Assembly (NCBI RefSeq): GCF_013167455.1
Contig: NZ_CP038328.1
Source: Escherichia coli O157:H7
Lineage (GTDB): Bacteria; Pseudomonadota; Gammaproteobacteria; Enterobacterales; Enterobacteriaceae
Length of the DNA stretch: 64,000 nucleotides
Direction: 5' to 3' (one strand)
This document shows positions 45,901-60,900 of the stretch, in pieces. The position numbers were made by a program. Within the stretch, counting starts at the first letter, position 1, and the number at the start of each line of letters is the position of its first letter.

Positions 45901-48900
45901 TTGAAGCCAGTTCACTTTCGACAACGCCAGGATTTACGCAGGTCACACGGATTTTCGAGCTTTCCTGCCGTAAGCCATCAGAAATAGCCCGTACTGCAAA
46001 TTTTGATGCACAATAGACTGCGCCTGTGGGCACAACAGAAAGGGCACCAATAGAACCAAGATTGATTATCTGACCGGAACCCTGTGCTTCCATCACCGGA
46101 AGTACAGCGCCAATTCCCCACAGTACACCTTTGATATTCACGTCAATAGTGAGCGCCCATTCATCTTGTTTTCCTGCTGCAAGCGGTGAAAGCGGCATAA
46201 CGCCCGCATTATTGATAAGAACATCAACTCGCCCCCAGCTATCCAGCGCTGCTTGCACGAAATCGGCCATGGACTGTCGGTCTGTGACATCCAACTCCCG
46301 CGCTTTAGCAATTCCTCCTGCGCGGCAGATTTCGGTTGCAATGGCTTCGATACGCTCAACTCTGCGTGCTCCCAGTAAAACCTTTGCACCTGTCATTCCA
46401 AGCTCTCTGGCAATACCTTCCCCAATACCACTTGATGCGCCGGTAATTAATATGACCTTATCCATTACGTTCTCCTTCAAATGTGTTCGGAGAGAGAATA
46501 GAACTTTATGATTGGTTCCAGTATCCTGCTTTCAATGTACTCAGTGGTTAGCGGCATTAAACAATGAAAATCGATCTTAATCTTTTACCCATTTTTATCG
46601 CGGTAGCAGAAGAGAGTAATTTTAGTAAAGCCGCCGCACGGCTGGGCGTTACCCGTTCAGCGGTCAGTCAGGGAATAAGACGCCTTGAAGATGCATTCGG
46701 GACAATGCTTGTAATGCGGACCACGCGCTCAGTTAATTTGACAGAAGCGGGAGAACGGCTGCATAAATCGCTGTCATTACCTTTATCCGGTATTGAGGCA
46801 GCGTTCGAAGAGATGGTTTCTGACCATGTGCCACGCGGACTTCTCAGAATCGCGGTGACGTCAATAGCTGAAGAATTTCTTTCAGGTCCGCTAATCGCTT
46901 CGTTTGCAGCAGCCAATCCAGCCGTTACGCTTGATATTGTTGTCACGGATGAGGAATTCGATATCGTGGCCGCAGGTTACGATGCTGGCGTAAGGCTCGG
47001 AGAGGTCATTGAAAAAGACATGATTGCTGTGCCCCTTACCGGCAGGCAGCGTGAAATGGTCGTTGCCTCTCCCTCCTATCTCGCAGCCAACAGCACACCT
47101 GTTCATCCGCGTGAACTTGTGAATCATAAGTGTATCGGCTGGCGTCAGTCCCCGGAGGTTGCGCCTTATCGCTGGCCATTTGAAGAAAACGGGAGAGCTT
47201 TCGACCTTGCGATTGAACCGCAGATTACGACTAATGATCTGCGTCTGATGTTGAGGCTGGCTCTTGCCGGCGGAGGAATAACAATTGCCACTCAGGAAAC
47301 TTTCAGGCCGTATATTGAAAGCGGTAAGCTTGTATCTCTGCTTGATGACTTTCTTCCACAATTTCCGGGCTTCTATCTGTATTTCCCACAGCGTCGCAAT
47401 ATTGCACCAAAGCTCCGCGCTCTGATTGACCACGTTAAGGAATGGCGGCAGCAATTGGCTTAAATGTCTGCACCTGCATTGCCTGATGTCAGAACAGTAT
47501 TTTGATTAATTGCCAGGGTTACAATGGCACAAATGCGGCACAGGAGGAAACGTGGTGTATTTAAATATGGGGTAACTACTTGATTTAAATGGTGCGATAA
47601 TAGGAACCAATAATCGCCACCAACACAATGATTTTAATACATAAATTAAAATAGAAGATTTAAACTACACACACCCCTATACACATTGGTGAAGGCGTTC
47701 GCTTTCCGCGCATTCTCAAGGCAGAAAAAACTTTTTTTGGGGGAAAACTGTTCATACTACTCATTGTGTTTTTTTTCATTAATATTCAAAAAGATATGAA
47801 ATTAACGATTGATAAGAAGTGAACACTTTACTGTTCACCTTGACTGATTAATAAGTGCATAAAAACCTAATTTTTGAGCACGGAAGGTATTTGTTCCTTA
47901 CCCCATTTTTTCTCTTTAGTCCAGTACAACAAAAAATGCGCCCAACAGAAAACTGTTTTGAATTTAAATGCAATCGCTTTGTAGTGATTGTAACGTAAGT
48001 TGATTTGATGGGTGCGATTTTGTTTAGCGATAATGGTATGTTGTAAAAATCATTTCGTTGCAATAAAATTGCATCGCTACATTTTATAGACAATATCAAT
48101 TAAATTTTAATACTCATTATTAATTTTGAGGCTAACAAGTGACTAGTTATTCAAACTTTTCCAATCAAATAAAAGAAACCATCAATAATAAATTCGATCA
48201 TGAAATTCATGATTGGGACATTATAAAAAACTCAATCACAACTTTAATAAATAAAAATATCCATGGTGCAGGTAGAAATATCGTTGATTTTATAGATTTA
48301 GGTAACTGGGATTTTATTTCAAACTTTTCCTTTGATGACTCTACAAGAAGACTTGAATTAGAGTGGCACCCCAATGATAAATTCCATATATATATTGAGT
48401 CCGTTGTGTTTGTCGAGTTTAATGACACTATATATGCTTTCTTAAAGGGATACTATCACAATCAGTTATCTCTAAATAGAATATATAATACAAAATGCTC
48501 TTCATGTTCATTTGAAAACTCAGGTTCTTATATGGTAGACGTTTATAGAACGGTTAAAAGAGTAAATGAGACAATCCAGACCCCAAATATAAATTGCTAT
48601 ACTACATGTATTTTAACAAGGCCCGCAAATGGTCATGTTACATCTACAGGCTTCTCACGAAACCTCATGGATGCGATAAATATTTCATTAGCAGAGCACA
48701 AAATAGCCTCTTTACATAATGAAGTCATGAGTATTGAGGAATATGATCGTGATTCTTTACAAGAGAAAGGAAATACTGCCAGGAGATATTTAGAATATAT
48801 TCTCATGCTTGTTAATATTCGTATAATGCATTTAAACAACGTTCAATACCAAGAGCAAATGCTAGGTAGTTTAGTTTCTGTTATTGAGGCTCTGGACTAT

Positions 48901-57900: not shown

Positions 57901-60900
57901 CAATGATTCTAAAACAATCTCTCGTTTTAGGGCTAACTGAGCATCTCTACGGGGTATTGGAGGATGAAGACTAATCTCTTCAGGTAAAAAATCCTTAAGA
58001 TTTACTAAAATAAAATCAAAACAAATAAGCCGTTCAAGGCTTAATGAAGAAGGATAAATAGCGACGAGCACTTTCGCCATTCGACATGCCACTTCTAAAC
58101 TTGAATTATAAATTCTAACCATTATCTCACCGTCCAAATTACTTCACCATCATTAACCAAATGATGGCATATTCCTTTTTTATCATTTGCTTCACATATT
58201 TTTGATAGTACTGAATGTGCAATTGGTGTCAGAACAGCCTGCTTCAAGACTGCATTACACCTAATAAATGCATAATTATGGTCTTCATAAAAGACGGGTT
58301 CAATTGAAGATGAAATGTAACATTTCAATGCTTTGAATACATCATCTTTAAATACTTCGCGGACAAAAACCTCAAGCGAAGATGCAAAATAAAAATCATT
58401 TCTACTATTATTAAAGTGTCGTCTGTATGGATCATCAAGCTCTAAGAAAGAACTATAAGTTTTATTTCCATGCTCTGAATAGGCTTGAAGCAGTGCATTA
58501 ACATATACAGACTCTTTTTTTGAATTGTATGTTGGAATTTCATTTGGAGGGATTCTCACGACATACAGCTCGTTAAAGTACTTAAAATAAAGGTGTGTAT
58601 TTGCAATATCATTTAAAATCAATGATAAGGGTAGAGAGTAAAAAATACTAAAATCAAAATCCTCAATATATTTTTTTATTTCATCATCTAATGGAATATC
58701 AATCTTTTTAGTTATTTTTTTGAAATTGCTGAATCCCATGAATCAAGGACTGCTTTTTTAAGCTCGTTTTTATTTTTCAATAAATTAGAAAATGTAGTAG
58801 ATAAATCATAGGGTGCCACAAAAAAGTACTTCTGAGGGATGGGATAATCACCATTCAGAGTAAAATAGATAAGTTTTCCAAACTCAACTACAACATCAGA
58901 GAACCCTAAACTTTTTTTGTACAGTTTGCATTGATAATTATCCCAAGAATAACCTTCTACGTTAGGATCCGATTTATATCCAACAACGTCTCTACCTTTA
59001 TCTCCAGCTCCTCCCAAACGTTCGCTCCACGGGTAATCATCTGATTTACAGACAATAAGCCAATCATGGACAAATACCTCCCATGTTCATCATCCCATGT
59101 CAATATTTCCGAAAGTGGTTGAGACACAAATTAACTCCTTTTTAGTCTTTCAAATATCAAATTACTGTACCAGTCCATCATAGACTTCCTTCCACTAAAA
59201 TATTGAGCATGGTTATAAGTCCCCCTAATAGAATTTTTATCTACATGAGCCAACTGGATTTCAATCCAAGCACTCTCAAAACCTTGCTCATGCAGGATTG
59301 TAGAAAGGGTATGACGAAAACCATGTCCAGTGACTTTTCCTCCATACCCAATACGCTTAATGGCTTGATTTATACTCGCTTCGCTCATTGGCCTATTCGG
59401 ATCGTTCCGCCCTGGAAAAACATAACGATAGTTCCCTGTCATGATCTTGAGTTCATTGAGTAAATCTACCGCTTGAGATGATAAGGGCACAAGATGTGGC
59501 CTACGCATTTTCATCCTTTCAGCAGGAATTTCCCAAATAGCGTTATCCAGATCAAATTCTTGCCATAATGCCGCGCGTAATTCGATGGTTCTCACACCCG
59601 TAATCATCAGTAATTTCGTGGCTATCTGGACAAGCTTACTCCCGGAGTAACCCTCTAAGGCACGTAGAAAATCAGGTATCTCATCAGCTTTTAGGAATGG
59701 GAAATGATTGGATTGGTGTACTTCGAGAGCGCTGGAGAGATCAGCCGCAGGATTGTACTCCGCCCTACCCGTTGCAATTGCGTAGCGAAACACTTCGGAG
59801 CAACGCTGCCGCACTTTGCGCATTTTCTCCAACGCACCACGTTTCTCAATTTTACGCAGAACGTTCAGCAGCTCTAGCGGTTTAATCTCTCCCACAGGCC
59901 TTGTTCCGACATAAGGAAAAATGTCGTTCTTAAACGCTTCCATGATGTCTGATGCATATCCCGCCGACCATTTAGCAGATTTAAGTTGATGCCACTCTCT
60001 GGCTATCTTTTCGAAGGCGTTCTCTGACTCTGTTTGCATAGCTAGCTTTTGCTCTTTTCGAACCTCACTAGGGTTCTTTCCTTCTGCCACAAGTTTTCGA
60101 GCTTCATCACGACGGGAACGAGCATCGGCAAGGGTGATCGTTGGGTAAACACCAAGCGAGATCATTTTGGGTTTGCCGGCATAGCGATAGCGGAACCGCC
60201 AACTCTTGCTTCCATTAGGTTCTATAAGTAATGACAACCCTAGCCCATCTCCAAATGTATAGGCTTTAGCTTCAGGCTTAGCGCGGCGAATCTGCATATC
60301 GTTTAAAGGCATGTGTATAGGAATCCAGACCGAACAGGAACATATACACAATCCTATACACATTCAGTACCGGATTCTACTGGATGGTTACGGACTACTA
60401 TGGACTTAAAAGAATAAAAAATGTTATAAATCAGAGATTTTATGGACTAATACGGACGTTTGAGGAAGTTGAGATGGTGCCGATAATAGGAGTCGAACCT
60501 ACGACCTTCGCATTACGAATTATAAGAATCCGCTTCTAATTCAAAGCATTACCCCATCAACACTGCGCTCACACGTCCCACCACATCAAAACATGTAAAG
60601 CCTTGCAAGCCATTGCGAGGCCTTATGTGTCTCAGTTTTGTCCCACCTTGTATTACGACTTGCATAGCCAATGAAGATAAACGTGACGACAAACGGCGCA
60701 GCAGTCTTCTTTTCTTTCACGACTTCTCCAGCATGCATACCTTTCTGCCATGACTGAAGTGAATGCCTGTTATGAGCGAGGATTGGCCCAGATGAATCGC
60801 CCTGGACTGTTGCGATCGTGAAGCCATAGACTGGGCCGCAAGCACGGGAGGTTACGATAAAGCGACAGTGCAGGATGTCATGTTAGGAGCGATAGAAAAA

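Follow-up and report, generated by a model that had tools for sequence, protein, structure and literature searches.

The subject of this analysis is a 64,000-nucleotide (nt) stretch of Escherichia coli O157:H7 DNA (contig NZ_CP038328.1, assembly GCF_013167455.1; hereafter the window), and within it a P4-like satellite prophage, Sp2. Window positions 47605–60491 are 100% identical, in reverse orientation, to the feature that the depositors of the Sakai genome annotated as "prophage Sp2, P4-like phage" (NC_002695.2, 310628–323514), which directly follows "prophage Sp1, lambda-like phage", both lying downstream of the transfer RNA (tRNA) gene thrW; Sp2 itself is already known, having been annotated since the publication of the Sakai genome. 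Its length between the two copies of its attachment site (att) is 12,887 bp, compared with ~7–20 kb in the definition of P4-like elements. Its parts follow the order att, crr-like iterons, a cargo open reading frame (ORF), alpha, a cnr-like gene, a 73-amino-acid (aa) ORF, an immunity region, vis/AlpA, the ori iterons, the late operon sid-psu-delta, a cos-like site, a cargo hotspot, int and att, an arrangement that is colinear with P4 opened at attP.

The early genes are encoded on the minus strand. The alpha gene (49228–51561 in the Prokaryotic Genome Annotation Pipeline (PGAP) annotation, within an ORF reaching 51618) is intact and encodes a 777-aa protein, predicted to be a primase-helicase with origin-binding function, which shares 73% identity with P4 alpha over 771 aa (phrog_2249, E=1e-220). 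It is accompanied by a homologue of cnr/ORF106 (51575–51898; DUF5375, phrog_5991; 71% identity to P4 ORF106) and by a gene for a small 73-aa protein (51898–52119; phrog_10110) that sits in the place of epsilon/orf151 and is common in P4-like satellites, although it does not occur in P4; a family of ~75-aa proteins has been reported in 61% of P4-like elements (PMC8628076). The vis gene (52670–52930) encodes an 86-aa AlpA-type helix-turn-helix protein of the excisionase-regulator type with 63% identity to P4 ORF88 (phrog_2790, phrog_66), and across the cnr, vis and cI regions identity to P4 is 63–71%. On the plus strand, the late operon (53864–55442) comprises sid (53864–54616; phrog 6165; 23% identity to P4 Sid), psu (54613–55164; phrog 6366; 31% identity to P4 Psu) and delta (55170–55442; phrog 603; 41% identity to P4 Delta), the last encoding 90 aa with a single Ogr-like domain; this order is common to three relatives (L008–L010), whereas P4 has sid-delta-psu. 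At the far end of the element, again on the minus strand, lies a P4-type tyrosine integrase gene (59131–60312, 393 aa by the PGAP start and up to 410 aa over the ORF, which reaches 60363; phrog_1, NF007246), whose product shares 38% identity with P4 Int over 405 aa and 63% with the integrase of another thrW island.

These assignments, from PHROGs, blastp and tblastn comparisons with P4 and the RefSeq annotation, bear out the earlier note on this DNA, which had read an integrase, a delta/psu/sid-like operon, an AlpA-like gene, an early operon and alpha in P4 order and had called for an alignment to phage P4. That alignment showed the colinear layout and the 73% identity of alpha described above. 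Because P4 is too divergent at the DNA level for megablast, blastn with a word size of 7 was used instead; megablast of the 14 kb around the element against a phage database returned only trivial matches to insertion sequences (IS) and lambda fragments. Searches against P4 gave no homologue of epsilon or orf151 (blastp and tblastn, E≤1), and no gop, beta or cII in Sp2 (tblastn). We compared the element with the seven-component definition of P4-like satellites (PMC8628076 / SatelliteFinder), which allows one missing component (Type B). Sp2 has the integrase, alpha, the adjacent Sid/Psu/Delta operon, AlpA/Vis, and the conserved order and size, and lacks Epsilon (Ash). With six of the seven components in conserved order, it is a Type B P4-like satellite because epsilon/Ash is absent, and it belongs to a sid-psu-delta subfamily often found at leuX in E. 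coli.

Both ends of the element lie in sequence derived from thrW. At the int end, the 3′-terminal 46 nt of thrW recur without mismatch, reverse-complemented, at 60475–60520, the match ending in the anticodon loop, just as the earlier note had proposed in describing a 46-nt tRNA-Thr 3′ fragment abutting the integrase. Inside this fragment lies the int-proximal att core (60475–60491, minus strand; TGGTGCCGATAATAGGA), which equals the last 17 nt of thrW, and the boundary between Sp1 and Sp2 in Sakai corresponds to window position 60491. The distal att (47590–47605, minus strand; TGGTG-CGATAATAGGA) matches the 17-nt end of thrW except for one missing C (16/17) and forms the left boundary of Sp2. 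Homology to the host sequence of an empty-site strain and of K-12 stops at 47605, inside the tRNA 3′ end, and the Sakai Sp2 feature ends at the same position. The degenerate match that had been noticed at 47590–47608 is therefore real, whereas the view that the element has no obvious intact second att did not hold, as this 16/17 copy lies exactly where the homology to the empty site stops. The same degenerate sequence is found in O55:H7.

No tRNA was detected in the window by ARAGORN, and thrW was located instead in the record of an identical genome. Strains with an empty site have the order paoD, yagP′, thrW, proA. In strain ECP19-598, which is 99.993% identical over window positions 35000–64000, an intact thrW adjoins proA, and a ~38-kb prophage with its own integrase lies between thrW and the 46-nt fragment, together with a mosaic of IS, AraC and GIY-YIG genes; the full tRNA-Thr gene, for which a search outside the window had been suggested, is thus found beside proA, past the neighbouring prophage. 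In Sakai, a 10.6-kb remnant, Sp1 (300042–310627), occupies the place of this prophage. Its ECP19-598 counterpart (NZ_CP066753.1, 4426000–4463600) looks complete, with terminase, portal, capsid, sheath, tape measure and baseplate, and the window ends before the point at which the two differ.

Because the intact thrW lies beyond the neighbouring prophage, the 17-nt core is the att of Sp2 and the further 29 nt (60492–60520) belong to the distal att of the prophage upstream. What the 46-nt fragment reflects is accordingly a tandem array rather than the loss of a tRNA, the array running thrW, Sp1-type prophage, 46-nt thrW fragment, Sp2, 16/17 thrW remnant, yagP. The order in which Sp1 and Sp2 integrated cannot be inferred from it, since both orders give the same final structure. 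The 1-nt att deletion could be a mutation after integration or could derive from an imperfect attP, and the data fit both.

The replication origin can also be recognised in the sequence. The ori (53480–53700, plus strand) consists of eight direct TGAAYA(G/C) iterons in three phased groups, together with an inverted CCTTCACC at 53635–53642. The eight same-strand TGAAYA units (53483, 53493, 53503, 53595, 53605, 53616, 53680 and 53690) are spaced by 10–11 bp within the groups and form the densest such cluster in the window. In first-order Markov simulations (5000 per intergenic region), TGAAYA[GC] reached at most 3 matches in this intergenic region, compared with the 7 found at 53483–53690. The annotated ori type-1 repeats of P4 (9311–9418) align to window positions 53594–53700 with 71.6% identity (blastn), and when Sp2 is aligned with P4 and three divergent relatives from E. 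coli, the iterons stand out as conserved islands. The earlier note had placed octamer repeats resembling P4 iterons at 53480–53710, and we regard this cluster as confirmed, as a sequence feature, as the putative alpha-binding iterons of ori. The possibility raised alongside it, that such motifs occur only at background frequency, applies to part of the signal: the exact octamers TGTTCACC and TRTTCACC are at background across the window, and the enrichment is limited to the degenerate core.

Only one other place in the 64 kb holds at least 3 TGAAYA[GC] units within 120 bp, the seven at 53483–53690 being joined by three at 47748–47831. This crr-like cluster (47726–47840) contains CTGTTCA at 47748–47754, TGAACAC at 47820–47826 and CTGTTCA at 47831–47837. 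A second repeat cluster had been claimed at 47745–47900; it is real, its units are few, and its reading as the P4-type crr is probable, as weighed below.

Between the 73-aa ORF and vis, the sequence holds what appears to be an RNA-based immunity module, made up of a C4-type RNA and its leader targets, all on the minus strand. A full-length match to the C4/CI-type immunity antisense RNA lies at 52365–52452 (Rfam RF01695, 84 bits against a gathering score of 45, E=1e-15). Upstream of it, the early-operon leader (52521–52611) combines an isrK-type RNA (52521–52598; Rfam, 72 bits, gathering 50), which ends in an intrinsic terminator with its stem at 52527–52541, and a candidate a1/b1 target of C4 (52559–52611; Rfam c4-a1b1, 44.6 bits, gathering 46.7). 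On the other side of the C4-like RNA is an Icd-like ORF of ~65 aa (52116–52313; cell-division inhibitor type) with its own Shine-Dalgarno sequence and ATG, the in-frame ATG at 52313 being preceded by GGAGG. PGAP extends this ORF to 52673 (185 aa), across the RNA genes; the only curated domain in the longer product is Icd-like (NCBIfam, residues 133–179), with phrog_1743 at residues 121–183. Both loops of the C4-like RNA are complementary, over 14 and 12 nt if G-U pairs are counted, to 52314–52329, a predicted downstream C4 target of the a2/b2 or seqC type that covers the Shine-Dalgarno sequence of the Icd-like ORF. The interval 52311–52669 had been proposed as a non-coding stretch where a P4-type immunity RNA would map; such an RNA is indeed predicted there by the C4 and isrK matches, and the non-coding status is at odds with the 185-aa ORF annotated across it. 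By analogy with P4, Sp2 would be regulated by transcription termination.

Further cis-acting signals accompany the late operon. TGT-N12-ACA is the Ogr/Delta site of P2 and P4 late promoters, and a dyad of this form, read from the sequence at 53776–53793 (plus strand), ~70 bp upstream of sid, is the expected Delta/Ogr site; all five elements of the alignment mentioned above have the same TGT and ACA. The 230 bp after delta (55443–55672, plus strand) show ≥93% conservation in four satellites that otherwise diverge, with similarity dropping abruptly at the border of the hotspot. This block ends in a cos-like GGCGTGGGGGGCTGCGCGC (55652–55670), a candidate cos whose first 12 nt resemble the start of the P2/P4 cos, GGCGAGGCGGGG, and whose core differs at two positions from that of three relatives. 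At the other end of the element, between the convergent alpha and cargo ORF, a terminator scan identified a hairpin with a 14-bp stem (49195–49225), the putative equivalent of the P4 terminator t-alpha, with a 90% match over 20 nt to P4 4610–4629 (t-alpha region).

Two blocks of low GC content (~30%) coincide with the two cargo hotspots of P4, int to psu/delta/sid and primase to att, described in bioRxiv 10.64898/2026.02.27.708500 and PMC9122126. The first holds a decayed Lamassu (ABC-three-component) system (55852–59127, minus strand, GC ~30%), of which PADLOC detects all components, adjacent to one another, with E values from 1e-21 to 1e-50: LmuA in two to three pieces (58122–58739, 58712–59017 and 58957–59127), LmuC (57664–58137) and LmuB in three pieces (57039–57698, 56418–57008 and 55852–56418). 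The LmuB pieces are colinear on a single 610-position model (positions 3–199, 231–412 and 428–608), separated by an in-frame stop (~200/231) and a change of frame (412/428), and LmuA is split at ~140/141 of its 336-position model, with a further frameshift in the window strain; neither an intact LmuB frame (~610 aa) nor an intact LmuA frame (~336 aa) is present. Sakai annotates ECs_0293 as a pseudogene. The first LmuB fragment used as a query retrieved nothing beyond the O157 cluster apart from a partial Solibacillus protein (48%), with no intact close orthologue, so that the case for decay rests on the PADLOC model mapping together with the stop and the frameshift. Judged from its sequence, the Lamassu system of Sp2 is clearly broken.

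The Lamassu block was found only in 308 genomes of the O157/O55 lineage. It is 3336 nt long in the window strain and in ECP19-598, compared with 3337 nt in most O157 genomes including Sakai, the missing nucleotide lying at 58712–59017 / 58957–59127 and causing an extra frameshift in an ORF that is intact in Sakai (ECs_0290, 138 aa). Fewer than 1% of the pseudogenes detected in P4-like satellites are reported to resemble defence genes (bioRxiv 10.64898/2026.02.27.708500), which makes Sp2, with a pseudogenised defence system and intact core genes, an uncommon case.

The second hotspot, between primase and att, carries an intact cargo ORF of 318 aa (48139–49095, plus strand, GC 31%). Its product combines a beta-rich domain at the N terminus with a DUF4145/HEPN-like helical domain at the C terminus that shows the four-helix HEPN fold, and the fold of the whole protein is shared with proteins labelled DUF4145 or HEPN (template modelling score 0.7–0.78); the ORF has no match in Pfam (HEPN Pfams included), PHROGs, PADLOC or NCBIfam. 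The family-invariant segment L269-N-A-C-S-H274-H-G-G-V-R279 has no Arg at the canonical Rx4-6H position, and R215 and R216 are invariant elsewhere. Full-length homologues occur across the Enterobacterales, most of them 42–80% identical; in another E. coli, one of them is the neighbour of a P4-type integrase at thrW, and a second lies between a methyltransferase and ArdC on a conjugative element. One relative has an AbiJ-type gene in the corresponding position. The protein may have a role in abortive infection, which is a reasonable guess. Tentatively, we consider it possible that it is an undescribed single-gene anti-phage factor of the abortive-infection type, or an anti-defence factor, and as such the working cargo of Sp2 in place of the dead Lamassu; equally tentative is the associated idea that P4-like satellites, thrW islands and conjugative elements exchange the gene. 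In O55:H7 USDA5905, which has the identical degenerate att, the ORF is annotated as frameshifted, indicating that this cargo gene is not universally maintained in the lineage. As a HEPN-like gene in the minor hotspot it is a small point of interest, and one that is cheaply testable.

Taken together, the colinearity with P4, the homologous proteins, the alignment of the ori iterons, the immunity RNA above its gathering score and the Sakai label all support the P4-satellite reading of the earlier note. We conclude, with a probability of about 0.88, that the region is prophage Sp2, a thrW-integrated P4-family satellite of 12.9 kb that is second in a tandem array and most likely immobile in its present host. 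The 14 kb around the element are 100% identical in many E. coli O157:H7 chromosomes, and Sp2 is present in ~305 of 5426 complete E. coli genomes, all of the O157:H7/O55:H7 lineage. Its equivalent in EDL933 is, we assume, the cryptic prophage CP-933I, a name on which a literature search returned nothing.

Homology to P4 and P1 allows a prediction of how Sp2 would work. As long as the element is a prophage, its early transcript would be stopped in the leader at the terminator (52527–52541), while the C4/CI-type RNA (52365–52452), produced from the same early transcript, would pair with the upstream a1/b1 site and, downstream, over the ribosome-binding site of the Icd-like ORF, both pairings keeping alpha silent. 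On derepression, alpha would bind the iterons at ori (53480–53700) and at the crr-like site (47726–47840) and replicate the element. Delta, or the Ogr protein of a helper, would switch on sid-psu-delta through TGT-N12-ACA, Sid would redirect the capsid of a P2-type helper to small size, and the helper terminase would cut the cos-like site (55652–55670).

Asadulghani et al. (2009; PMC2669165) classed Sp2 as P4-like and credited it with repressor, integration, excision and replication functions but no antirepressor, and in Sakai neither a circular form nor replication or packaging of Sp2 was detected with or without mitomycin C; the P2-like Sp13 of the same genome has lost most of its morphogenetic genes (PMC2669165). 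We consider Sp2 most likely immobile in its present host because it lacks epsilon, its att carries a 1-nt deletion, no competent P2-type helper is available and the published tests were negative. Several observations nevertheless weigh against parts of this picture. The c4-a1b1 match falls just below its gathering score, and the cos candidate has no match to a known phage cos, the P2/P4 cos 19-mer being unmatched at ≤3 mismatches and the 410-bp region after delta finding no match in 50,697 phage records, distant mode included. The crr-like cluster has only three or four units and is separated from alpha by a cargo ORF, whereas in P4 and in two relatives (L008 and L009) the iterons directly follow alpha. 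RNA pairing, binding of alpha to the iterons, activation by Delta and cleavage at cos are all predictions from homology. P4-type satellites are not naturally triggered by SOS induction, and the negative excision result was obtained with mitomycin C or no treatment, neither being the natural trigger, which leaves immobility likely rather than proven.

The alternatives bear on different parts of this reading. One holds that the region is a mosaic of unrelated islands, with int and alpha from different elements, in keeping with a GC content that swings from 30% to 54% across it and with surroundings that are a patchwork of IS, serU and prophage remnants. The low-GC blocks, however, fall exactly on the two known P4 cargo hotspots, the same gene order is found in relatives bounded by tRNA-Leu, and the whole 14 kb is inherited as a unit in the ~305 genomes. 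An origin of alpha and int in unrelated elements, which the earlier note had named as the finding that would overturn its reading, was examined and found unsupported, since direct repeats of the thrW end bracket exactly the segment from int to the crr-like cluster; we give a mosaic next to no weight. More serious is the question of whether the cluster near the distal att is crr at all, or instead a chance occurrence in AT-rich DNA or the arm-binding region of the integrase, with any replication proceeding from ori alone. Besides its small number of units, the ~1.3 kb between the cluster and alpha fits that doubt, as does the lack of homology to the post-alpha iteron regions of L008 and L009 beyond the iterons themselves. 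A 3-unit cluster also arises somewhere in 6% of simulated whole windows, for which reason the weight of this one comes mainly from its position. Yet none of the 5000 local simulations reached three units (maximum 2), the cluster holds the only exact P4 octamer of the element (TGTTCACC at 47832–47839), its units at 47748, 47820 and 47831 are in mixed orientation as in P4 crr, and its distance from the att core (~120–250 bp) is comparable to that in P4 (~200–500 bp). In addition, positions 47726–47772 resemble the beginning of the P4 crr repeat, weakly but in a position-specific manner (74% identity over 50 nt, E=0.002). A function other than crr therefore seems unlikely to us, and 47726–47840 is, on sequence grounds, probably crr.

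A further alternative concerns the immobility of Sp2, as the element might be fully competent and merely short of a suitable helper in O157, its att deletion being tolerated. All six core genes present are intact and full length, the ori, immunity RNAs, late-promoter dyad and cos-like block are conserved, and the published experiments covered only mitomycin C or spontaneous conditions. Such a satellite would have its att deletion outside the strand-exchange overlap or would have carried it already in an imperfect attP, and an incoming P2-like phage with matching cos and terminase would then bring about its excision, replication and packaging. Epsilon is missing, however, the att match is 16/17 with an indel, the otherwise conserved cos-like core has two substitutions relative to three relatives, no circular form was detected and the cargo is decaying. 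Competence is hence a possibility that we take seriously while leaning towards an Sp2 that is immobile in its present host.

The surroundings of the element have a complex history of their own. From the 46-nt thrW fragment to pinE (60521–63616), the sequence is a patchwork whose parts differ in their distribution among E. coli genomes, and which includes a partial IS3-family (ISEc48) transposase (~60800–61234), an AraC-family regulator (61275–62027) and a LEM-3-like GIY-YIG protein (62792–63616). Within this Sp1-side mosaic, positions 62323–62666 match the yodB-serU intergenic region of other E. coli at 97%, the last part (62601–62666) being a 66-nt 3′ fragment of tRNA-Ser (serU) with 2 mismatches; an att-type remnant of serU and ~280 bp of chromosomal flank from another locus are thus embedded here, which suggests past imprecise excision or recombination of a serU-integrated element. 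On the other side of Sp2, window positions 41000–47463 contain a full-length LysR gene yagP (46564–47463) and, between paoD and the thrW site, extra genes for a short-chain dehydrogenase/reductase (SDR) oxidoreductase, a second LysR protein, an alpha/beta hydrolase and a major facilitator superfamily (MFS) transporter, whereas in K-12 and the empty-site strain paoD is followed directly by a truncated yagP alone. A 117-bp repeat with 89.7% identity occurs at 44826–44942 and 23053–23168; the first (~44.8 kb) carries the annotation of a truncated ykgR, and the second is presumably the intact gene region.

Little is at stake in these results, as P4-like satellites, RNA immunity and defence hotspots are all well described already. 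Their modest value lies in a base-level map of the satellite of a reference strain, covering the att cores, ori and crr-like iterons, C4/isrK module, Delta box and cos candidate.

Compared with P4 (NC_001609), Sp2 has the same backbone order of att, probable crr, alpha, cnr, immunity RNA, vis, ori, late operon, candidate cos, cargo and int, with an alpha of 73% identity, homologous ori iterons, CI/C4-type RNA immunity and an att at a tRNA 3′ end upstream of int. It differs from P4 in its target (thrW in Sp2, leuX in P4), in the order of its late operon, in its 90-aa single-domain Delta (166 aa in P4), in its lack of epsilon, orf151, gop, beta and cII, in its iteron core (TGAAYAG in Sp2, GGTGAACA in P4), in a single-copy probable crr displaced by a cargo ORF, and in its candidate cos sequence. 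A short, single-domain Ogr-like Delta like that of Sp2 is also found in the retronphage phiR73, a P4-type satellite that is integrated at selC and carries a retron. The immunity region resembles the c4-icd-ant locus of P1/P7 and the Salmonella IsrK locus (RF01695, RF03163, RF01394) in its C4 RNA, a1/b1 leader target, isrK-like leader with a terminator and Icd-like ORF with a C4-complementary ribosome-binding site; in Sp2, however, a P4-type replication operon lies downstream of the module in place of an antirepressor gene.

The Sakai Sp2 is the identical element, likewise in tandem with Sp1 at thrW and carrying the pseudogene ECs_0293, from which the window strain differs by one extra 1-nt deletion in the N-terminal ORF of LmuA. 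The E. coli sid-psu-delta satellites at leuX (for example in strains FREC5, NZ_CP180702.1, and 2013C-3277, NZ_CP027331.1) share with Sp2 the architecture, a 73–75-aa ORF, the Icd-like ORF, the pattern of ori iterons and the conserved cos-side block, but have their own integrase and tRNA target, and their iterons come directly after alpha. Their hotspots also carry other cargo: one has an AAA ATPase together with an S8 peptidase, a second has IS66 among others, and an AbiJ-type gene lies close to att.

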